Source of the DNA: a virus
Taxonomy: Duplodnaviria; Heunggongvirae; Uroviricota; Caudoviricetes
Virus record (IMG/VR): IMGVR_UViG_2541047857_000009
Strand: one strand, 5' to 3'
DNA: 64,000 bases
Shown one piece after another: positions 20,307 to 46,519 of the stretch (its first letter is position 1; every line of letters begins with the position of its first letter). Made by a program: the position numbers and the translations under genes. The notes under the pieces are model-generated. The model saw nothing but the letters and a program-made list of their open reading frames with translations. It was not told the origin of the DNA and made no database searches.

Positions 20307-20852
20307 ATGACATATCCAACTGTGATCGTGAATGGTGTCTCTGTCCGAGTGGACGAGAAGGGGCGCTATAGCCTGAATGATCTTCATGCCGCCGCTGTCC
20401 TGAAAGGTGAGGCTACTGAGTCACAAAAGCCGGGCAAGTTTATTCGTAGTGCATCAGTAAAGCGTTTCGTTCAGGCGCTGGCAGGCAAAGGACAAAAATG
20501 TCCTTTGGAAGATAACCAGGCACTTAGAGTAATTCGCGGTGGTGACGAGCCCGGCGTATGGGCTGCAGAGCTACTCGCTATTAGATATGCCGCCTGGATT
20601 AAGCCGGAGTTTGAAATCCGCGTTTATGAAACCTTCCGCGAGGCTGTGCTCAACGGTCTTAGCAATATGAACCGACTCAACCGACTTGACCTGCTGATCG
20701 CCAATGAGACCAAAGAGGTCAGCGCATGTGCCCGGGCAATGAATAAGTGGGGCGTCGGTGGTCGCAAGAAGCTTCTCAATTGCGCTCGTGAGCGGATCGT
20801 CAGCCAGATGGACCCTGACATGGTCACGCTTATGGAAGCGAAAGCAGGGTAG
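20307..20852 (+). CDS. KilA-N domain protein
   Basis: N-terminal VRVDEKGRYSLNDLHAAA...KPGKFIRS pattern typical of KilA-N. Confidence 0.5.
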   Translation: MTYPTVIVNGVSVRVDEKGRYSLNDLHAAAVLKGEATESQKPGKFIRSASVKRFVQALAGKGQKCPLEDNQALRVIRGGDEPGVWAAELLAIRYAAWIKPEFEIRVYETFREAVLNGLSNMNRLNRLDLLIANETKEVSACARAMNKWGVGGRKKLLNCARERIVSQMDPDMVTLMEAKAG

Positions 20853-21081
20853 CCAACGCAGAATTGCGTCGGCAAATAGCGGCATTACAGAAGCTCTTCA
20901 CTGAGGGGCTTCGATAATGACAAGCAGAGGTAAATTATGATTGGCACCCTAACCTATAAAATGACACTTCGCCCATACATGAAGCCCTTGCTGTTTGTCG
21001 CGGCAATGACTAACTGGCACTGGTTAACCGATATCTGCTTCAAGAAAGAGATTGTCGCAGAAGGCGCGAAGGTGGAGCTAA

Positions 21082-21300
21082 ATGGCTGACATCTACCAAA
21101 TCACGCTAACCACCCAAACAGGCGAAACCTTCACGGGCAAGATGTCACGACGTCAGCCTGAGCTGGTTAACGGCTTTGTGCCGCTGGCGACCGAAACGGG
21201 GCAGTGGCTGTACTTCGCTCCTGCTGATGTAAAGCGTGTGGAGTTCACGCCAGTACCTGAAGAGCAGACCGAACAGCCAGAAGAACAAACAACGGAGTAA
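21082..21300 (+). CDS. hypothetical protein
   Basis: 72-aa ORF. Confidence 0.35.
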   Translation: MADIYQITLTTQTGETFTGKMSRRQPELVNGFVPLATETGQWLYFAPADVKRVEFTPVPEEQTEQPEEQTTE

Positions 21301-21303
21301 CTC

Positions 21304-21936
21304 ATGGCAAGCGACGAAGAGAAAAGGCCACTGCCGAGTTCAGCATTCGTCGAAGAGTTCGCGCCATACACAAGACTGATTCCAGCTGATGGCGTGTGGC
21401 AGTGGGTACAAGCGAACATCATTGCCGAATCAGGCCACCTGCATAACCCCGACCATATTCATCTGGCAGATGCTGATATCGGCTTCCTTTGGGCTGCTAA
21501 TGCTTTCTCAAAGAAAGGGCGCACTGTTCTCGGGCAGGCCGAAGAAGTTATGTTTCGCGCTGGCGGGTGGCAAAAAGCCCGCATGGAGCAGCAGATGTAT
21601 GAATGGTTCGGGCATAAGCCGGATTACATCATTACCCTTGCTGGCGACTTCTGCCTTAAGTGCTCTGATCTGGAATTCTGCGCCCTGATTGAACATGAGC
21701 TTTACCACATCGCCCAAGAGGTTGATGAGTTCAGCGCTCCCAAGTTCTACAGAGACAGTGGTTTGCCAAAACTTTGCATGCGTGGTCATGACGTCGAAGA
21801 GTTTATCGGCGTGGTTCGCAGATACGGCGCAAGCTCTGATGTGCAGGAATTGGTAGACGCTGCAAACAACCCCGCCGAAGTGGCGAAAATTAACATAGCC
21901 AGAGCATGCGGAACGTGCATGCTGAAGCTGGCTTAA
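21304..21936 (+). CDS. HExxH-motif protein (putative zinc metallopeptidase-like)
   Basis: 210 aa containing IEHELYHI. Confidence 0.4.
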   Translation: MASDEEKRPLPSSAFVEEFAPYTRLIPADGVWQWVQANIIAESGHLHNPDHIHLADADIGFLWAANAFSKKGRTVLGQAEEVMFRAGGWQKARMEQQMYEWFGHKPDYIITLAGDFCLKCSDLEFCALIEHELYHIAQEVDEFSAPKFYRDSGLPKLCMRGHDVEEFIGVVRRYGASSDVQELVDAANNPAEVAKINIARACGTCMLKLA

Positions 21937-24009: not shown

Positions 24010-25359
24010 ATGAATGACAAATTAACTCTCGCCGTCAACCATGCGTTGAACGATGCGCGGATGGCTCGCGCCCGTATGGGGCTGATGGCGCCTACAATGG
24101 GGCTGGACAACAAGCGCCACTCTGCATGGTGCGAGTATGGATTCCCTGAGCAGGTAACCTACGAAAACCTTTATGCCCTGTACCGACGCGGTGGTATTGC
24201 CCACGGCGCAGTAGAGAAACTGGTGGGCAAGTGCTGGCAGACTAACCCGGAAATCATCGAGGGTGATCAGGCAGACAAAAAGCGCAAAGAAACCGCCTGG
24301 GAGAAAAAGGCCAAACAGGTATTCACCAACCGATTCTGGCGCTCATTCTCTGAGGCCGATCGCCGTCGTCTGGTGGGCCGTTATGCTGGCATCCTTCTGC
24401 ACGTCCGCGATGAAAAAGACTGGAACCTTCCGGTAACCAAAGGGCGAGGTCTTCAGAAAATATCGGTGGCGTGGGCAGGATCGCTTACGGTGAGCGAGTG
24501 GGACACTGGCCTGAACTCGAAGACGTACGGCCAGCCTCAGATGTGGCAGTACGCCGAACGCTTGCCGAATGGTTCAAGTCGCCGCGTCAATATCCACCCC
24601 GATCGCGTTTTCATCCTTGGTGATTACTCAGACGATGCTATTGGCTTCCTTGAGCCAGCTTATAACGCCTTTGTAAGCCTGGAGAAGGTAGAGGGTGGAT
24701 CCGGCGAGTCATTCCTGAAGAACGCCGCGCGCCAGCTTAATGTCAACTTTGAGAAGGAAATCGACTTCAACAATCTTGCGTCACTTTATGGCGTGAGCAT
24801 TGACGAGTTGCAGGATAAGTTTAACGAAGTTGCCGGGGAAATGAACCGTGGCAACGATGTTTTGATGACAACCCAAGGGGCCACGGTCACACCGCTGGTG
24901 ACTGCTGTAGCTGATCCTTCAGCGACCTATAACGTCAACCTGCAAACGGCTGCCGCCGGTGTTGATATCCCGACGCGCATTCTGGTTGGTAATCAGCAGG
25001 CCGAGCGCTCCAGCACCGAAGACCAGAAATACTTTAATGCTCGTTGTCAGTCGCGACGCGTAGACCTCTCTTTCGAAATAGAGGACTTCTGCGACAAGCT
25101 TATCGATCTACAAATCGTAGACTCAGTCAGTCAGAAGGCTGTTATCTGGGATGACCTTAACGAACAGACCGGTACTGAGAAGCTCACTAACGCCAAGACC
25201 ATGGGCGAAATTAACCAGACCATGCAGGGCAGCGGCGAAGAGCCAGCGTTCAGCCGTGAAGAGATTCGTACAGCTGCGGGTTATGACAATGACGACGAAG
25301 AGCCGTTAGGAGAAGAGGATGGCGACGAACAAGACGAAGCCACCAATTCTACCGCGTAA
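24010..25359 (+). CDS. portal protein
   Basis: 449-aa ORF after terminase; acidic C-terminus. Confidence 0.65.
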   Translation: MNDKLTLAVNHALNDARMARARMGLMAPTMGLDNKRHSAWCEYGFPEQVTYENLYALYRRGGIAHGAVEKLVGKCWQTNPEIIEGDQADKKRKETAWEKKAKQVFTNRFWRSFSEADRRRLVGRYAGILLHVRDEKDWNLPVTKGRGLQKISVAWAGSLTVSEWDTGLNSKTYGQPQMWQYAERLPNGSSRRVNIHPDRVFILGDYSDDAIGFLEPAYNAFVSLEKVEGGSGESFLKNAARQLNVNFEKEIDFNNLASLYGVSIDELQDKFNEVAGEMNRGNDVLMTTQGATVTPLVTAVADPSATYNVNLQTAAAGVDIPTRILVGNQQAERSSTEDQKYFNARCQSRRVDLSFEIEDFCDKLIDLQIVDSVSQKAVIWDDLNEQTGTEKLTNAKTMGEINQTMQGSGEEPAFSREEIRTAAGYDNDDEEPLGEEDGDEQDEATNSTA

Positions 25360-32350: not shown

Positions 32351-33019
32351 ATGACCGCTTTAACCGATATTGGCGAACTCTCTATCAGCGACAGCCGCGC
32401 AGGCGGTAAAGACTACCTGCTCAGGCCCTCATTCGAGGCTATGACGAGGATCGGCGCTCCAGAGGAGATTGTGCAGGCGTATGCCACCATCCACGGCAAA
32501 GACGTCGCACAGCTGGTTGAGGTGTGCGCTGGCATGCTGGGGCGCTTTCCTGAATGGCTATCACCTTCATTCAACCGTGCAGCCGAGAAGCTGTTATCGA
32601 CGTGCATGCTTGTGCTACAGGCGTGCTGTGAGGACGACCTGACGCCAATGATCGGCGAATGGAAAGGATGGCGGCATTGTGTCGTCTACCGCCCGGGCCA
32701 GATGCCTAAGAACGACATTATCGTACTGGCGCAGCACCTCATGCAGCACGGCATCGTCGGAAAGGCAAAGGTTCGCCAGTTGCAGCGCCACGAGACTGGC
32801 GAGCGCACTACGGAGTTCAAAGCCTTCGACTACATCAGCGCAGCACGTAGTCACTTTGGAATGAACCGCGCCGAAGCCTCTCAGTTAACGATGACCGAAT
32901 TTCAGATGCTGCTGGCGGCGAAATACCCCGATCAGAAAGGTTTCACTCGCGATGAGTATGACAGCATCGCCGACGAATACCTGGCTAAACAGGCTGCACG
33001 TAGAAAGAAAGCCCAATAA
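32351..33019 (+). CDS. tail assembly chaperone-like protein
   Basis: 222-aa ORF between major tail and tape measure. Confidence 0.4.
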   Translation: MTALTDIGELSISDSRAGGKDYLLRPSFEAMTRIGAPEEIVQAYATIHGKDVAQLVEVCAGMLGRFPEWLSPSFNRAAEKLLSTCMLVLQACCEDDLTPMIGEWKGWRHCVVYRPGQMPKNDIIVLAQHLMQHGIVGKAKVRQLQRHETGERTTEFKAFDYISAARSHFGMNRAEASQLTMTEFQMLLAAKYPDQKGFTRDEYDSIADEYLAKQAARRKKAQ

Positions 33020-33032
33020 ATTGGGCTCTATT

Positions 33033-33245
33033 TTAGAAAACCAACGTCAAATGCTCTCTACCAATCCGGGCTAAATCACTGACGTTCATTGGTACTCGGC
33101 CCCTAACGTCGATTTTAATGTGACCACCGGCATTAGCTACGGTTCTTATTAAGTCAGAAATATTCATTGGAATTGCACAATCGGCAGTAATTTCTATATG
33201 AACTCCAGTTCTGGCTATATCACTAATATTCATTGGTAACGGCAT
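33033..33245 (-). CDS. antisense small protein with three PMN[IV]SD repeats
   Basis: 70-aa minus-strand ORF; repeat codons differ synonymously (AGTGAT vs TCTGAC for Ser-Asp); GGAGG RBS. Confidence 0.35.
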   Translation of the reverse strand: MPLPMNISDIARTGVHIEITADCAIPMNISDLIRTVANAGGHIKIDVRGRVPMNVSDLARIGREHLTLVF

Positions 33246-33359
33246 AAATCCTCCATTGTTTTAAAAACAGCAATCATTTCAGCACGTTCATTACTTTTCT
33301 ATTGTGATGAGCCTTAAGATTCAGCGAAATACCATCGTCAGTACTATTTGGAGAATGAC

Positions 33360-36290
33360 ATGGCTGGTGAGAAGAACGCCGGTAGCATCGTTTATGAAAT
33401 CAGCGCTGACGTTGAGCCGCTGCTGCAGGGCGGGAAGCAGGCCATTGATGCTCTGGATAAATTGGATGCGGCAGCTCAGCAGTCCGGCAAGGGAATGGAT
33501 AACCTCGATCAAAGCACGTCTCAAACCGGATCCGCGTTTACTGAACTGGCTGGTTATGCCAACTCGATGGATAACCAACTGCGCAAGCTTAACACCAATG
33601 TGAGCGGGATCGCCCGCGCAATGGAAGAGGCCCGCAGCGGGACCGGTGGCGCCAACAGTGAGTTCAATCGCGCTGAATCCATCATCGAGGCGCTGGGTAA
33701 CCAACTCGCTGTGCTGGACGAAGCACAGGAGAATGGCGCTCGCAGTGCTGCCGTTCTGGCTGCCCAGTTGCGCGCCGGGTCAAAAGCGACCGATGAAGAG
33801 AAGCAGAAGATCGGCGAATTGACCGGCCGACTGTATGACATGAAAACAGGCGTGGAAACCGGAGCGAAAGGAACTGGAGCCTGGAAAAACAGCATGCAAC
33901 AGGCTGGGTACCAGGTTCAGGACTTTATCATTCAGGTTCAGGGCGGCCAGTCCGCGCTGGTAGCGTTTGCACAGCAGGGCTCTCAACTTGCCGGTGCATT
34001 CGGGCCGGGTGGTGCGGTAATTGGTTCTGTTATCGCACTGAGTTCTGTCCTGGCCGGTGTGCTCATCACTTCTCTGAATGGCGGCAAGAACGCCATGGAT
34101 GCGCTGAAAGACGCAGCCGAGGCGATGGACAAGGTCATTACCATTTCCCAAAATGGCGTGGCCGCTCTGTCTGATAAATACGCATTGCTCGCGAAAACGA
34201 ATACCGAAGTAGCAACGCTGATGCGTAACCAGGCACTGCTGGAATACAACGAGGCTATCAACAAGATACCGAAGGCGATTAGCGATGCTTCGAGCTCGTT
34301 ACTTTCCTTCGGCGATAAGGCACTTTCTGCATTTTCCGGTGGTTATGCGTCAGTCGATGGCTTTAACGATCGTCTGGCTACTCTTGAAATCACCACGGAT
34401 AACTATTCCGAGGCGATGAAGCAGGCATACGGTGCCGGGCAGGCATTCCAGGCGACCGCAAACAGCATTGGCAACACCGTCGGAGCCGTTGCCGACAAGT
34501 TCGGGATATCAGAGCAGAAAGCCTTCGAGTTCAGCAAGCAACTTTCCGATATTGCCAAAAACCCAACACCGGAAGCCCTGCAGCGACTTGCTACTGAACT
34601 GCAGAACACTCAGAGCTCAACCGAGAAAGGGCAGACTGCGCTCACGGCATTTGTTGGGAAACTGGTTGAGTTATCACGTGAAGCCGTCATTGCTAAAGGT
34701 AATGTTGCTGCTCTGAAGCAGGAAACGGATAACCTTACCGCCGGGCAGAAGAACCTTATCAAGCAGTCAGAGCGTAACCTTGCGCTGTCAAAACTGCAGG
34801 GTGAGGCTCGCGCCCGACTTCAGGCGCAATATGCCGCTGAAGATGCGGGGTTTGCAAAAGATGATCCGCACGCCAAACAAATGGAAAATGACGCTGCCGC
34901 TACGTACAAAAATACGCAGGCGCAGAAGACACTTCAGTCCGAGCAGAAGAAAGGTGCTTCCCAGGCTGATTCTATTGCTCAGAAACTGGCGAACCTGAAA
35001 CAGCAATCAGAGCTCGCTGCCGACTCAACAAGCAAGCTGAGCCGGGAACAAGCGATCCTGAATGCTCAGCAGTCACTTGGTAAAGGCGCAACGAAGGAGC
35101 AGATCGCGCTGGCTGGGCAGTACGCCGCAACAAAATGGGACACTGCTAACGCCATTAAAGCGCAAGCGGCAGCTGAGAAGCTTCTCCCTGAGGCGCGTGA
35201 GAATGCCAGTTACAAGCAGGATGTAGAGGATCTGAACACCGCTCTGGCTGCGAAGAAAATCAGTCAGGAGCAGTTCAATCAGACTTCCGAGCGACTGGAG
35301 GCAACTCACCAGGCAAACCTCGCCAAAATCCGCGCCCAGCAGGCTGTGACGCCACAGCAGGATGCAGTCGGTGGAGTTGACCCTGTTCAGCAACTTGCTA
35401 ACGAGAACGCTCGCAAGCTAGCGCTCATTCAGGCATTCGAACAGCAGGGGCTTATCACTCACCAGAATGCGCTCATGCTGCGCGCTACAGCTGACAAGGA
35501 GTATGAGCAGGCTCGCATCGCTGCCCAATGGGAGATCTTCCGCAATCAGAGCGCAGGTAATGAAGCACTGGCGGCGTCCTTCGATGCACTGGCCGGTAAT
35601 GCGTCCAACGCCTTAACCGGCATCATTACCGGGAGCATGTCAGCGTCTGATGCCCTGCGCTCGATCGGGAATACCGTACTGAACAGCCTCATCAACACCT
35701 TCGTTCAGATGGGCGTTGAGTGGGTGAAGTCAGCCATCATGGGGCAGACGGCCACCACTGCTGCAGTTGCAGCATCGACCACTGCTCAGGCGGCAGGCAT
35801 TGCCACTACCACGGCGACGTCTACCGCGGCGGCGGCGGCTACGACAGCGGCCTGGACTCCGGCAGCCATTATGTCATCCATCGCCTCATTCGGTGGTGCG
35901 GTGGCGATCGGCATCGGAGCTATGGCTGGCATCCTGGCGCTGTCTGGCAAGCGAAAGAACGGCGGGCCCGTTTCGGCTGGCGGAATGTACCAGGTCGGCG
36001 AAGGCGGGATGCCTGAGATTTACCAGGCCAGCACCGGAAAGCAGTACATGATACCGGGCGACAACGGTCGAGTGATCAGCAATAAGGACATGGCTTCAGG
36101 AGGTGGTGGCGGGGTGGTAATCAACATCCAGAACTACACGTCATCCTCGGTCGATGCGCAAGCTGGCACGGATGCCAATGGGGGCGTGACCGTCGATGTC
36201 ATCGTCGCTGACCTGAATAATGGCGGGCCGATTAGCAGCGGTATAACCAGCAACTTCAATGTCAAACGCAAGCCAAGGGGGCAGGGCTGA
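33360..36290 (+). CDS. tail tape measure protein
   Basis: 976 aa, alpha-helical/coiled-coil rich with Ala/Gly C-terminal segment. Confidence 0.8.
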   Translation: MAGEKNAGSIVYEISADVEPLLQGGKQAIDALDKLDAAAQQSGKGMDNLDQSTSQTGSAFTELAGYANSMDNQLRKLNTNVSGIARAMEEARSGTGGANSEFNRAESIIEALGNQLAVLDEAQENGARSAAVLAAQLRAGSKATDEEKQKIGELTGRLYDMKTGVETGAKGTGAWKNSMQQAGYQVQDFIIQVQGGQSALVAFAQQGSQLAGAFGPGGAVIGSVIALSSVLAGVLITSLNGGKNAMDALKDAAEAMDKVITISQNGVAALSDKYALLAKTNTEVATLMRNQALLEYNEAINKIPKAISDASSSLLSFGDKALSAFSGGYASVDGFNDRLATLEITTDNYSEAMKQAYGAGQAFQATANSIGNTVGAVADKFGISEQKAFEFSKQLSDIAKNPTPEALQRLATELQNTQSSTEKGQTALTAFVGKLVELSREAVIAKGNVAALKQETDNLTAGQKNLIKQSERNLALSKLQGEARARLQAQYAAEDAGFAKDDPHAKQMENDAAATYKNTQAQKTLQSEQKKGASQADSIAQKLANLKQQSELAADSTSKLSREQAILNAQQSLGKGATKEQIALAGQYAATKWDTANAIKAQAAAEKLLPEARENASYKQDVEDLNTALAAKKISQEQFNQTSERLEATHQANLAKIRAQQAVTPQQDAVGGVDPVQQLANENARKLALIQAFEQQGLITHQNALMLRATADKEYEQARIAAQWEIFRNQSAGNEALAASFDALAGNASNALTGIITGSMSASDALRSIGNTVLNSLINTFVQMGVEWVKSAIMGQTATTAAVAASTTAQAAGIATTTATSTAAAAATTAAWTPAAIMSSIASFGGAVAIGIGAMAGILALSGKRKNGGPVSAGGMYQVGEGGMPEIYQASTGKQYMIPGDNGRVISNKDMASGGGGGVVINIQNYTSSSVDAQAGTDANGGVTVDVIVADLNNGGPISSGITSNFNVKRKPRGQG

Positions 36291-42777: not shown

Positions 42778-43863
42778 CTAAATAAAACGCCTTGTAAATT
42801 TTGCTATTTTTTTCTCAATCAACGAGTGAACTAAGCACCCTGTAATAATGCTAAATAACACATAAAAAGCAAGGTACATAAATACACTGGTATGCAGATG
42901 TAGTTCCAGTCGCTCCCACCAGTGCGCAAGCAATGATGTAAATAAGCCATGTATGAGGTATATGCAGTACGAAGCATTACCTAAGTAAACTAATATATTC
43001 GGAGTCTTTACTTTACCCTCAAGGCTAATTGTTGCCCATACGATGTAAAAAGAAAACGCTCCCCATATAAGAGGTCTGTGCCATAAGTTCCCTACATACG
43101 TAGTTATTAAATATTTTTCAAGGATATAAAATAAAGGCAACGAACAAATCAATATAGCAGTAGCAAGTTTGGCGTTAAGAAATATTTTTGATATGTACAG
43201 TCTGTACATAAACATACCCAAAGCAAACTCAATCATTACTGGCTGAGAGATTACCTCAATTGGAGGGAAATACGCTTTAATAAAATTTGCGGCATGCTCG
43301 TTTTTAACTAAAATGTTACAAACGATAACTATTGTCACAAATGAAATTTCTATTTTCTCTATTTTTGAAACGCCAATTGCAATAAAAATAGCGAAGATAG
43401 CATAAAAGAAAAATTCAAACTGAAGAGTCCACCCAACACCTAGTATTGGTCCCTTATCCCAATGGGTGAACGTTATGCTCCTAAAAAAATACACTAAATC
43501 TATTTTATCAGATGGAAACCAAAAAAGTAACGGTCTTGCTGGGGAGGTGATTTGGTATGAAACCAAATAAGAGACATAAACAGCACATGCCGTAAGGATA
43601 ATATATAAAGGAAGTATCCTAACCAATCTTCTTAAAAAGAACTTTGCCGCTGAAATATTAAATGGCCCATCAGCTTTTTTACCTCCATAAGCAATAAAAG
43701 GCATTATAAACCCACTAATTATAAAAAATATATCAACACCTATACCACCAAGGCCTGACATCCTTATTCCATACATTACAATCTCAGAATGTGCAATGAC
43801 GACAATCAATGCGGCAAAGAAGCGCAATACCTGTATGTTATAAATTGTTTGTTTGTTATCCAT
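42778..43863 (-). CDS. acyltransferase family 3 (OafA/OatA-like) integral membrane protein
   Basis: 361 aa, about 10 TM helices, N-terminal LRFFAALIVVIAHS motif; AT-rich; convergent with tail fibre. Confidence 0.7.
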   Translation of the reverse strand: MDNKQTIYNIQVLRFFAALIVVIAHSEIVMYGIRMSGLGGIGVDIFFIISGFIMPFIAYGGKKADGPFNISAAKFFLRRLVRILPLYIILTACAVYVSYLVSYQITSPARPLLFWFPSDKIDLVYFFRSITFTHWDKGPILGVGWTLQFEFFFYAIFAIFIAIGVSKIEKIEISFVTIVIVCNILVKNEHAANFIKAYFPPIEVISQPVMIEFALGMFMYRLYISKIFLNAKLATAILICSLPLFYILEKYLITTYVGNLWHRPLIWGAFSFYIVWATISLEGKVKTPNILVYLGNASYCIYLIHGLFTSLLAHWWERLELHLHTSVFMYLAFYVLFSIITGCLVHSLIEKKIAKFTRRFI

Positions 43864-44177
43864 TTTTTAATAATTGGTAATTACGTGCTTAAGGTTCCAA
43901 AAGATTCCAGTTATTCACTGGGGCTGTAAGATTTTAACATCAATGCTTGATGGTTGACACACTGAATGCAGTTTAATATTTAATAACAACAAAATAATAA
44001 CCAACTGTAATTAGCATGCTATAAATAACGTTGAAGATTACATCTCATGCTTCTATATCGCAGTAAAGTCAACATAGATTAACTTCTGCTTTTCCATCCA
44101 CAACTTTATCTCAAGCTACAACAACAAGTTGCATGCTAACTATTTCACGGTACTTGATGTGCGCTCTGTAAGAGTAG

Positions 44178-44197
44178 TACTGTATGTATAAACAGTA
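44178..44197. promoter_or_regulatory. LexA (SOS) box upstream of umuD'
   Basis: TACTGTATGTATAAACAGTA fits CTGT-N8-ACAG. Confidence 0.8.
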
Positions 44198-44215
44198 TTT
44201 ATGGGAGTGCAAATC

Positions 44216-44587
44216 ATGGAGTCCCAATTCCCCGCAGCAGATTATGCAGTAGAGCGTATCTCACTGGACGGCAGGATCATTACAAGCCCAGCGTCGACAT
44301 ATTTGATGCTGGCAGCAGAGACTATCTGGCGCGCAGGCATTATGAAAGATGCAATGCTTGTCGTGGACAGCGCTGTACATCCCATTGATGGTTCTATTAT
44401 CGTATGCCAGTTCAACGGTGAACTTCGTCTTAAGCGCTTGAGGTTAGCTCCTGCTCGATGCCTTGAAGATCTTAACTATCCAGACCGGCATCAGATGCTG
44501 ACGTCTGAAACTCTCATTATGGGAGTTGTGACATATATCATCAACGATGCCCGTAGTGGTGAGTTTGACGACAGCCCGGTGATCTGA
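44216..44587 (+). CDS. umuD: UmuD'-like protein lacking N-terminal cleavage segment and catalytic Ser
   Basis: Aligns with UmuD from about residue 26; GDSM replaced by ETIW; Lys retained (LKRLRL); GGGAG RBS. Confidence 0.65.
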
Positions 44588-45855
44588 TGTTTGCCCTGGT
44601 TGATGTAAATTCATTTTATGCGAGTTGTGAGACGGTATTCAGGCCTGACCTGAAAGGAAAACCGGTTGTTGTGCTGTCGAATAACGATGGCTGCGTGATT
44701 GCGCGCTCTGCTGAAGCGAAACTGCTCGGCGTCAAAATGGGTGACCCGTACTTCAAACAGAAAGACCTGTTCACGCGGTGCGGAGTTGTCTGCTTCAGCA
44801 GCAATTACGAGCTCTATGCGGACATGTCCAACCGGGTGATGACAACGCTCGAAGAGATGTCGCCGCGCTGCGAAATATACTCAATAGACGAGGCTTTCTG
44901 TGACCTTACCGGGGTTCGTAATTGCAGAGTTCTGGAAGACTTTGGACAGGAACTAAAGGACGCTGTATACCGTAACACGCGGCTTGCTGTCGGCGTTGGG
45001 ATAGGGCAGACAAAGACACTGGCGAAACTGGCAAATCATGCTGCAAAACGATGGCAGCACAAGACAGGTGGAGTTGTTGACCTGTCTAACGTCGAGCGTC
45101 AGCGCAAACTGATGGCAGCACTTCCTGTTGATGAGACATGGGGAGTGGGCCGGCGCATTACCAAAAAGCTCGAGGCTATGGGGATCAAGACGGTTCTCGA
45201 CCTGGCTGATACTGACATACGATTTATTCGTAAACATTTTAATGTGGTTTTGGAAAGGACTGTGCGTGAGCTGCGAGGAGAGCAGTGTCTAGAACTGGAA
45301 GAGTTTGCACCCGTAAAACAAGAGATTGTATGTAGCCGCTCATTCGGCGAACGAGTCACTGAATACGATGCAATGCGGCAGGCTATCTGTAGCTACGCGT
45401 CGCGAGCAGCGGAGAAGTTGCGTGGAGAGCATCAGTATTGCCGGTTTATCTCTGCGTTCGTCAAAACGTCACCATTCGCGCTTAATGAGCCATATTACGG
45501 TAACAGCGCATCGGTGAAGTTGCTGACACCGACGCAAGATAGCCGGGACATCATTGCGGCGGCCACTAAGTGCCTTGATGCTATATGGAAAGATGGTCAC
45601 CGATACCAGAAAGCGGGCGTGATGCTCGGAGACTTCTTCAGTCAGGGCGTCGCACAACTTAACCTGTTTGATGACAATGCACCTCGCGTCGGAAGTGAGA
45701 AGCTGATGGAAGTTCTGGATCAACTCAACACTAAAGGCGGGAGAGGTACGCTGTATTTTGCAGGGCAGGGCATCCAGCAGCAGTGGGCGATGAAACGAGA
45801 AATGCTTTCGCCGCGGTACACAACAAGATTTTCCGATCTGCTGCGCGTTAAGTAA
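44587..45855 (+). CDS. umuC: UmuC, Y-family translesion DNA polymerase subunit
   Basis: 422 aa; [15 protein letters not shown]...SIDEAF Y-family signature; ATGA-coupled to umuD'. Confidence 0.85.
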
Positions 45856-46519
45856 CGAGTTCAATCAACTCCGGCCCCTGATTTTTCACATTACCAACGG
45901 AGCGCGTCACGGCGTGCCAGATAAACTTGTCGGCGGAAACCGCTCCGTCGGCTGCTATCTCTTCCGCTTCTTTCCCGCCTATATCCTGGCGCATCCACTC
46001 ACGGGCCGCTTCAGGTGACAGAACAAGCGGCCGTCTGTCGTGAATGTCGACCAGTCCTTTATCAGCTGCAGATGTCACTATCAGAAAGCCCTCAGCGTCA
46101 TCACCGCGCTCAAATGGCGTGCTGCCTATAGCTGCCATAAAGATTGGCTGACCGTCGGCACGGTGAATGAAGTAGGGCTGTTTCTTGTCGCCTTCCTTTT
46201 TCCATTCGAACCAGCCATCAGCAAAGCAGATCGCCCGGCCATGTTGCCAGAGAGGTTTGAACATTCGGCTGGTGGCTGCGGTTTCGACGCGTGAGTTAAT
46301 CAGCGGCGGTTTATCCCACCACCCGGGAGCGTATCCCCAGAACACTGGATCGAGATGCAGCTGCTCGTCGCGTTCGCTCAGCAGCAGAACTTTGGTGCCT
46401 GGCGCAACGTTGTAGCGTCCAATCGGCTCCGGGTCGTACGCGATGTCGCGATCGGCTTCATCCGCCAGGTAAGCCAGGTATTCTTCACGCGTTTGAGCTT
46501 GTGCAAAACGTCCACACAT
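45848..46519 (-). CDS. SOS response-associated peptidase (SRAP/YedK family)
   Basis: 223 aa starting MCGR with catalytic Cys2; 3' end overlaps umuC by 8 bp. Confidence 0.75.

Follow-up and report, generated by a model that had tools for sequence, protein, structure and literature searches.

Is a short, repetitive open reading frame, wedged on the minus strand between two plus-strand tail genes, a gene at all, and if it is one, what might a prophage use it for? The locus that raises this question lies in the 64,000-nucleotide stretch of viral DNA analysed here, which we refer to as the window. A preliminary description of it had proposed that an AT-rich gap in front of the tape-measure gene holds three direct repeats, and that these belong to an antisense gene for a small repeat protein.

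The cassette and its setting

A comparison of the 551 bases from position 32900 to 33450 gave 100% identity with a prophage in the chromosome of E. coli 20A24 (NZ_CP147044.1), where the integration site lies near yciB/ompW/trp. The early and regulatory genes of this prophage are lambdoid, with NinE, NinG and a Q-family antiterminator among them (RefSeq annotation), while its structural module is akin to that of Enterobacter phage CobraSix. The tail genes run in the order tail tube with Ig domain, DUF6246 protein, tape-measure protein and distal tail genes, and both genes that flank the gap lie on the plus strand. The features of the junction are as follows.

32351..33019, plus strand: left flank, gene for the DUF6246 protein, 222 aa (Pfam DUF6246, E 3e-72; phrog_791; RefSeq)
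about 33003..33347, no strand assigned: inserted AT-rich cassette, ~345 bp (alignment with XJ55, 30EVA1 and CobraSix; GC content)
33008..33029, no strand assigned: GC-rich hairpin, GAGCCCAAT / ATTGGGCTC (inverted repeat; plus-strand terminator scan; minus-strand fold)
33360..36290, plus strand: right flank, gene for the tail tape-measure protein, 976 aa (phrog_1538, E 1e-224; RefSeq)

The AT-rich gap is confirmed: the DUF6246 gene runs to 33019, the tape-measure gene begins with its ATG at 33360, and the GC content of the gap is 0.35-0.41 as against 0.53-0.63 in the flanks. The naming of the right-hand neighbour as a tape-measure gene also stands (phrog_1538), whereas the label of tail chaperone given to the left-hand one reflects its position alone, its matches being to DUF6246 and phrog_791. 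In an alignment of the junction with those of E. coli XJ55, E. coli 30EVA1 and phage CobraSix, similarity is lost near 33003 and picks up again at 33348. All three relatives lack the cassette and have the DUF6246 and tape-measure genes 12 bp apart, an arrangement that displays the ancestral state of the junction. The cassette takes the place of the last few DUF6246 codons, the stop included, and its right end falls directly 5' of the GGAGAA ribosome-binding site of the tape-measure gene.

The hairpin at the left end of the cassette supplies the new DUF6246 stop codon and is predicted to be a bidirectional intrinsic terminator. On the plus strand a terminator is predicted at 33010-33027, with a T-run (5 T in 8) after the hairpin, and on the minus strand the same hairpin folds into a 9-bp stem, after which comes a tail less rich in T, TTTCTTTCT. 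The stem is kept in a variant of the locus whose small protein is 90% identical (L003), where the sole change falls in the loop. A search against Rfam gave only a sub-threshold match, on the terminator hairpin, and no overlapping antisense RNA family.

A moron, in the published sense (PMC3594210, after Juhala et al. 2000), is extra DNA relative to collinear relatives that has a deviant base composition and both a promoter and a terminator of its own, and whose gene is active in the repressed prophage. The segment described here amounts to ~345 bp of extra DNA relative to CobraSix, XJ55 and 30EVA1, its GC content is 0.35-0.41 against 0.53-0.63, and the predicted hairpin at 33008-33029 would serve as its terminator. 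With its foreign base composition, its lack of a counterpart in relatives and its predicted terminator, the cassette fits this definition, its promoter being a weak candidate that a consensus scan did not return, and we regard it as very probable that it is a real coding moron, horizontally acquired, at the DUF6246/tape-measure junction of a lambdoid-regulated siphovirus prophage.

A minus-strand gene with three repeats

The coding content of the cassette lies on the minus strand, and comprises the following elements.

33033..33245, minus strand: gene for a 70-aa three-repeat protein, WP_001514209.1 (ORF, RefSeq CDS, phrog_23044, homologues, dN/dS, AlphaFold)
33220..33236, minus strand: repeat copy 1 in gene order, P4-M-N-I-S-D9, CCA ATG AAT ATT AGT GAT
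33154..33170, minus strand: repeat copy 2, P26-M-N-I-S-D31, CCA ATG AAT ATT TCT GAC
33076..33092, minus strand: repeat copy 3, P52-M-N-V-S-D57, CCA ATG AAC GTC AGT GAT
33249..33254, minus strand: Shine-Dalgarno sequence GGAGGA (33254-33249), 3 nt 5' of the ATG (direct reading; kept in the 90% variant L003)
33273..33301, minus strand: candidate promoter, TAGAAA, 17 nt, extended -10 TGaAATGAT (hexamer scan)

The open reading frame at 33033-33245 has a strong ribosome-binding site and translates as MPLPMNISDIARTGVHIEITADCAIPMNISDLIRTVANAGGHIKIDVRGRVPMNVSDLARIGREHLTLVF. It matches phrog_23044 over its full length (E 6.2e-52; residues 1-70 on profile positions 1-70 of 70), RefSeq annotates it as the coding sequence of WP_001514209.1, and the exact 70-aa protein is recorded in 824 blocks of the assembly collection. 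No plus-strand ORF of at least 30 aa lies wholly inside 33020-33359; one 40-aa plus-strand ORF (32952-33074), which starts inside the DUF6246 gene, enters the left edge of the gap.

The preliminary description was accurate as to the three direct repeats, apart from a shift of one base (they begin at 33076, 33154 and 33220), and as to what they encode, namely PMN[IV]SD within a minus-strand frame of 70 codons preceded by a ribosome-binding site, GGAGGA, 3 nt before the ATG. It had also drawn attention to synonymous codons for Ser-Asp, and indeed these read AGT GAT, TCT GAC and AGT GAT in copies 1, 2 and 3. The 17-nt repeats are spaced 78 and 66 nt apart, and in a repeat search the pairs extend to 34-39 nt at 72-79% identity. 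A degenerate 17-mer built on them has three matches in the 64-kb window, all at the repeats, where 0.03 are expected, although this enrichment is partly circular because the pattern was derived from the copies themselves. Independently of the 17-mer, three of the five exact TTCATTGG sites in the window lie within 150 bp at the repeats.

Upstream of the gene, the -10 hexamer of the candidate promoter ends 27 nt before the ATG. Each hexamer matches at only 4 of 6 positions, plus the TG, and the TG and -10 hexamer are kept in L003. We consider this candidate weak, because a stricter sigma-70 consensus scan of the 114 bp upstream of the antisense gene returned no promoter. By eye, a homologue in another prophage has TGgTATAAC at a comparable upstream position.

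Selection acts on the protein

Comparison with close variants points to a protein that is maintained as such. Against the 97% variant (L028) dN/dS is 0.11 and against the 90% variant (L003) it is 0.21; synonymous differences outnumber non-synonymous ones in the two variants, 9 to 7 and 5 to 2, where non-synonymous sites are about three times as numerous as synonymous sites. In L003 the TTCATTGG core is altered in all three copies and the reading frame is intact. L003 is itself a decayed prophage: unrelated genes, one of them for a UvrD-like helicase, have taken the place of its tail genes beyond the beginning of the tape-measure gene, and the 70-aa ORF is intact in this remnant too. The most decisive support for gene status comes from about 30 homologues that share the three-repeat plan. 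Judged by these sequence comparisons, the ORF is a real protein-coding gene under purifying selection.

The opposing reading holds that the ORF is spurious and that the repeats are sites at the level of DNA, to which a regulator, say, or a nucleoid protein might bind. The DNA is certainly AT-rich and repetitive and has no strong promoter, as such a reading would have it. But distant homologues retain length, frame and repeat pattern despite little DNA identity, silent differences exceed amino acid replacements in the variants, the serine codons of the copies differ between the TCN and AGY families, and the 90% variant has changed the core of every copy. An array of DNA sites is rejected because of the homologues, the dN/dS values, the PHROG and RefSeq matches and the core changes in L003, and a spurious ORF seems to us scarcely credible. 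The preliminary description had argued for selection at the protein level rather than an array of binding sites, and would have given that view up had antisense transcription been absent and the repeats conserved only as DNA in relatives; the variant dN/dS values of 0.11-0.21, the distant homologues, phrog_23044 and the RefSeq annotation all favour it, and L003, losing the core and keeping the frame, displays the opposite of conservation at the DNA level.

A family of three-repeat proteins

Exhaustive phmmer searching, together with a profile search, brought up about 30 homologues that are 66-75 aa long, 23-54% identical and all endowed with three repeats; the long repeat proteins that phmmer also returned (P0002, P0004, P0014 and P0016) were excluded, being regarded as artefacts of repeats or low complexity. 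The homologues come from E. coli, Serratia, Vibrio cholerae, V. alginolyticus, V. splendidus, Burkholderia multivorans, Herbaspirillum and metagenomes, from genomes that are unrelated and of different GC content. The repeat unit is 22-26 residues long with the consensus LPxTLExLARIGGxH[ILV]T[IV], and each of the three repeats has an Arg and a His at the corresponding places (LAR..G.H).

The 70-aa protein has a mass of 7.6 kDa, a pI of 6.8 and no transmembrane segment, its maximal 19-residue Kyte-Doolittle mean being 0.96. The pI of family members ranges from 5 to 10, and on this ground a reading of the protein as a DNA mimic was rejected. Structure prediction, which the preliminary description had named as a check, gave three helix-strand repeats at a pLDDT of 77-80 and a pTM of 0.61-0.64, with AlphaFold run on either 15 or 31 family sequences. 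In the predicted topology (H7-11 E16-19 H29-39 E42-46 H55-65 E66-69) the three helix-strand units may form a parallel sheet, and the product is predicted to be a soluble cytoplasmic alpha/beta repeat protein. The predicted fold found no significant structural match, searches of Pfam, NCBIfam, PADLOC and PHROGs returned nothing except phrog_23044, and profile searches of the PDB, with the whole protein and with a single repeat, gave nothing below E 0.18. Marginal matches to Radical_SAM, KHA, ocr and RnpM (E 0.006-0.1) were dismissed as noise, and a resemblance to the 'GHLEIV' of DARPins was not significant in the PDB search. This three-repeat family of about 70 residues is a new cargo, one that has no entry in Pfam, NCBIfam or PADLOC and no structural relative.

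The heads of the repeats covary within proteins. Each protein tends to use one head three times, PMNIS in the 70-aa protein and PIDL, PFDL, LPETL or LAPTL in others, and over the six repeat-head residues identity is 0.67 within proteins as against 0.30 between them, a value that none of 5000 permutations reached. Recent gene conversion is excluded for the 70-aa protein because its copies differ at synonymous sites. The covariation is consistent with stacking of these residues along a ladder of repeats, or with a target whose symmetry is repeated or three-fold.

The junction as a hot spot, and other homes of the family

The DUF6246/tape-measure junction is a hot spot for accessory genes. In E. 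coli A14 the slot is filled by an NYN-domain gene on the sense strand, in Enterobacter phage ENT1 by an unrelated antisense ORF of 98 aa, and in Serratia prophages by islands of several genes, whose products include lipoproteins and a 301-aa protein that, judged by eye, resembles a caspase. The slot also houses divergent members of the present family. The protein P0011 (locus L035), 33% identical to that of the window, is encoded antisense and tail-to-tail with DUF6246, with a hairpin between the two genes, and the locus continues with a lipoprotein gene and then the tape-measure gene. Two further members, P0031 and P0032 (L016-18 and L023-24; 40% identical), lie antisense in the slot in two kinds of Serratia prophage. 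In a P22-like element (L032) the family member is again antisense, between the ejection-protein genes and the replication genes. Thus, in every tailed-phage structural region examined (the window, L035, L016-18, L023-24 and L032) the member runs antisense to its flanks. Downstream of the stop codon the window, L003, L023 and L035 have a GC-rich hairpin, and L016 has a weaker one.

The DUF6246 proteins of the phages that share the slot are 53-55% identical to that of the window, the small proteins 33-40%. Because divergent members share the slot alongside DUF6246 proteins of this similarity, the small gene is either an old and fast-evolving resident or the product of repeated capture. A single ancestral insertion may lie behind the antisense copies in the DUF6246 slot, and for that reason these copies do not count as independent observations.

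Outside the structural regions of tailed phages, members occupy four settings: the end of filamentous prophages in V. cholerae; a place after an integrase gene and before a HEPN-domain gene in V. alginolyticus; one between a TIR gene and other cargo in Herbaspirillum, adjoining ThsB-TIR/SLATT genes and a prophage terminase; and one beside a resolvase and a DUF6338 gene in Burkholderia. Members often sit at element borders, adjoining integrase or resolvase genes. The 160- to 273-aa genes downstream of five homologues do not align with one another, and the small genes upstream are likewise unrelated; since the neighbours are not mutually homologous, the family has no fixed partner. The neighbourhood of defence genes seen in some of these settings fits an anti-defence or a regulatory role equally well.

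Searches for the family found no member among 50,697 GenBank phage genomes, virulent relatives included, and none among PLSDB plasmids, and a search of genome contigs with P0003 as query returned no related locus. In the collections covered, the family was found only in prophages and genomic islands.

A possible role, and its rivals

We propose that the cassette is a coding moron whose product acts in conflict and is made in the lysogen. Taken whole, and as a compromise between surer and less sure parts, we hold this explanation to be somewhat probable; that the product is specifically a lysogen-expressed defence or exclusion protein is a tentative proposal, and rather doubtful. In outline, a weak extended -10 promoter belonging to the cassette would drive the antisense gene in the lysogen, and would also do so ahead of late transcription; the hairpin would prevent the antisense transcript from entering the tail genes. 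Once the prophage is induced, late transcription antiterminated by Q would pass through the hairpin and collide with antisense transcription, and the collision would lower the output of the small gene during assembly of the phage's own tails. Logic of this kind is on experimental record for two genes of unrelated sequence, those for Tab of JBD26 and TaiEcA of phi80 (PMC10884400, PMC11364771). The 70-aa protein may bind another protein through its repeat ladder or the face of its sheet; if the repeats stack on each other, covariation of their heads within a protein is what one would expect. By analogy with the defence and exclusion morons Tab and HK97 gp15, the role would lie in conflict between phages or between phage and host. 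The TIR, HEPN and ThsB/SLATT genes among the neighbours elsewhere count for a conflict role; the failure of the strict sigma-70 scan, the lack of a conserved partner and of a sense-strand counter-gene, and the absence of the family from sequenced phages all count against the explanation.

A sharper version of the same idea would make the family a new group of small, prophage-expressed blockers of tail assembly or injection, tied to DUF6246 tail modules, whose repeats engage the tape-measure protein or the DUF6246 chaperone of an invader and whose host phage gains self-immunity from convergent Q-driven silencing, with no need of a partner protein such as anti-Tab is to Tab. The four divergent members (33-40% identical) that lie antisense in the DUF6246/tape-measure slot speak for it, but other members reside far from any tail gene, and we think it distinctly unlikely.

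The main rival to a defence or exclusion role is a factor directed against immunity. A constitutive promoter would drive its synthesis soon after infection or induction, and it would work either by inhibiting a defence protein of the host or by sequestering a molecule used in signalling. A protein that is small, soluble, without a partner and fast-evolving, more divergent (33-40% identity) than the adjacent DUF6246 protein (53-55%), is the kind one would look for; members lie beside TIR, ThsB/SLATT and HEPN genes in Herbaspirillum and Vibrio, and the recurrent Arg and His could form a ligand site. Yet a family seen in prophages and islands only, with no member in the GenBank phage genomes even among virulent relatives, is not what this rival leads one to expect, nor does the protein match known anti-defence families, and an orientation against late transcription is better suited to expression in the lysogen; on this balance we rate a counter-defence function unlikely. 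Addiction to the element is a further thought, with the protein as a toxin, an antitoxin or a similar factor that stabilises the prophage or island, and both the retention of a small standalone gene in a decayed prophage remnant (L003/L004) and the frequent position at element borders by integrase or resolvase genes are in keeping with it. The family nonetheless has no conserved partner gene, nothing of the hydrophobic character of type I toxins, no overlapping antisense RNA matched in Rfam and no match to a toxin-antitoxin model of PADLOC or Pfam, which makes such a role highly improbable.

The cassette might instead act mainly in cis, its hairpin or antisense transcript, or both, tuning the ratio of DUF6246 protein to tape-measure protein or insulating the tail genes, with the peptide secondary. 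The predicted bidirectional terminator does sit exactly at the gene junction, overlapping the DUF6246 stop codon, transcription of the cassette converges with that of the late operon, and in phi80 late transcription lowers expression of an antisense gene (PMC11364771). Against this, close relatives function without a cassette and with the two genes 12 bp apart, family members occur where there are no tail genes, the protein is under purifying selection and the Q-family antiterminator of the prophage should override the hairpin; we consider a mainly cis-acting cassette improbable.

Regardless of the specific function, what is new here is the cargo rather than the vehicle. The architecture of the cassette teaches little that is new because it is a textbook moron in a textbook slot, and neither the kind of element nor its antisense orientation would greatly surprise a phage biologist. 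The novelty is a compact three-repeat family that appears repeatedly in accessory-gene hot spots and repeatedly antisense in structural operons, and the covariation of its three repeat heads within each protein provides a neat small case of repeat co-evolution.

Comparison with known systems

At the level of the protein, leucine-rich and other alpha/beta solenoid repeats offer a comparison: the units of the present family are likewise short (22-26 aa) and predicted to consist of a helix and then a strand, the strands may be parallel, and matching positions of the three repeats covary as they would in a ladder. Leucine-rich repeat models gave no match in Pfam or in the PDB profile searches with the whole protein or a single repeat. 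At the level of gene arrangement, bor of phage lambda is a lysogen-expressed accessory gene transcribed against the late operon, as we propose for the 70-aa gene; Bor is an outer-membrane lipoprotein for serum resistance, and differs from the 70-aa protein in location and in type.

Gene 15 of HK97, the first moron to be described (Juhala et al. 2000; Cumby et al. 2012), sits between the tail chaperone and tape-measure genes (reviewed in PMC3594210). The cassette shares with it the siphovirus tail slot (the chaperone role of DUF6246 being read from its position only), the deviant base composition, a terminator of its own (predicted in the cassette) and a small product. Unlike gp15, an inner-membrane, YebO-like protein that blocks DNA injection, the 70-aa protein has no hydrophobic segment and a predicted soluble alpha/beta fold, features that set the two apart, and the gene at 33033-33245 is opposite in strand to the tail genes.

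Closer in orientation is Tab, the tail assembly blocker encoded by gene 31 of Pseudomonas phage JBD26 (83 aa; PMC10884400), which is likewise a small soluble protein without a known domain, encoded on the minus strand inside a late operon. Tab has its own promoter, and its arrangement permits constitutive expression from the prophage (PMC10884400); the protein stops invading phages from assembling tails, by way of their tape-measure protein. In contrast to the gene described here, tab has terminase genes on either side of it and is invariably paired with an anti-Tab gene on the sense strand, and an alignment of our family against Tab gave no sign of homology (hhalign probability 0.06%). TaiEcA (orf63) of phi80 is divergent and interrupts the Q-dependent late operon, an arrangement termed a 'noncontiguous operon'; it is expressed in the lysogen, and its level falls once Q drives late transcription (PMC11364771). 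The orientation of the 70-aa gene, which interrupts the Q-controlled late operon of a lambdoid prophage, is the same, whereas TaiEcA is 204 aa long as against 70 aa, is encoded upstream of the packaging genes and is paired with orf64, a counter-defence gene; here too homology was not detected (hhalign probability 0.3%). Both Tab and TaiEcA are accompanied by a sense-strand counter-gene, and the 33003-33347 cassette is without one.

Antisense small morons inside late operons are therefore already known, in Tab and TaiEcA, both of which have been studied by experiment, and the view of the preliminary description that a gene antisense to a late structural operon is unusual holds in the sense that such genes are uncommon, though not in the sense that they are new (Tab of JBD26, TaiEcA of phi80; PMC10884400, PMC11364771). 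It is because small prophage proteins in similar arrangements, Tab, Tai and HK97 gp15, recently proved to be defence factors of novel mechanism that we regard the three-repeat family as a reasonable candidate for a phage-challenge screen.

Covariation among the repeats

The repeats of the 70-aa protein (WP_001514209.1) vary together. In the alignment of the protein family, the six residues at the head of each repeat (window residues 3-8, 25-30 and 51-56 of the 70-aa protein) co-vary within a protein in all three repeats, with a repeat-head identity of 0.67 within proteins versus 0.30 between them, a value that was reached in 0 of 5000 permutations. The 90% variant, which is the copy of the 70-aa protein at related locus L003, has lost the methionine from all three of its PMN motifs, where it is replaced by V, L and T.

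Cargo at the DUF6246/tape-measure junction and elsewhere

Other genomes carry different genes at the junction between the DUF6246 and tape-measure genes that holds the 70-aa gene in the window:

L009 1636-1932, minus strand (antisense): 98-aa ORF, Enterobacter phage ENT1
L031 4375-4935, plus strand (sense): NYN-domain (nuclease-like) gene, E. coli A14 prophage
L016 4242-8084: island of about 4 kb, Serratia liquefaciens prophage

The ENT1 ORF, which is also present in BHUENT3/6, is unrelated to the 70-aa protein, and Pfam and PADLOC searches with it returned no match. For the E. coli A14 gene, PADLOC gave matches to NYN and HEC-09, both of them weak. The Serratia island is more elaborate: its contents include three genes for predicted secreted proteins or lipoproteins, and the family member at this locus is preceded by a gene for a small membrane protein and followed by one for a product of 160 aa. 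The island also encodes a 301-aa protein with GHGS...QCYAG motifs which, judged by eye, look like the His/Cys dyad of a caspase; a Pfam search with this protein found no match.

Cargo also differs around the family member in V. cholerae, where L013 5713-5934 and L033 5368-7138 represent one chromosomal site beside a filamentous prophage. In one strain it is accompanied only by a 73-aa gene, on its upstream side; in another it lies between an upstream gene of 138 aa and a downstream gene of 254 aa. Because the strains carry different cargo around the same family member, the site indicates a shuffling of cassettes around one constant small gene.

L003 (1934-5876) and L004 represent a prophage remnant that still holds the 70-aa gene, together with a truncated DUF6246 gene. 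Here the tape-measure gene is broken off past its first codons, and the sequence that takes over encodes a 243-aa product with a T1RH-like_C match and a split UvrD-like helicase. In E. coli 30EVA1 (L029), the RefSeq start of the tape-measure CDS lies 771 bp too far downstream (4136 versus 4907). The ORF itself starts 12 bp past DUF6246, and the apparent 784-bp gap is therefore an annotation artefact with no insert.

Other genes of the window's prophage

20759-21442, plus strand: DUF4145-domain gene, directly behind the lysis genes
21757-21930, minus strand: second small antisense gene, late region (57 aa, hypothetical, WP_155404554.1)
24010-25359, plus strand: 449-aa protein, RefSeq 'anti-CBASS protein Acb1 family protein'
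42778-46519: right end of the prophage, up to host yciB

The Acb1 family name looks like an annotation artefact, since in related loci the gene of the same position and length matches Pfam Phage_portal_3 and occupies the expected location of the portal gene.

At the right end lie an acyltransferase gene in antisense orientation, whose product may modify O-antigen, along with a umuD/umuC-like pair (S24 peptidase and Y-family polymerase) and an SOS-response-associated peptidase.

The DUF4145-domain gene is probably another moron, of an accessory or defence type. The 57-aa antisense gene has the lysis/DUF4145 genes on one side and the gene for the small terminase on the other. Its position is the hot spot 'upstream of packaging' that holds taiEcA in phi80.
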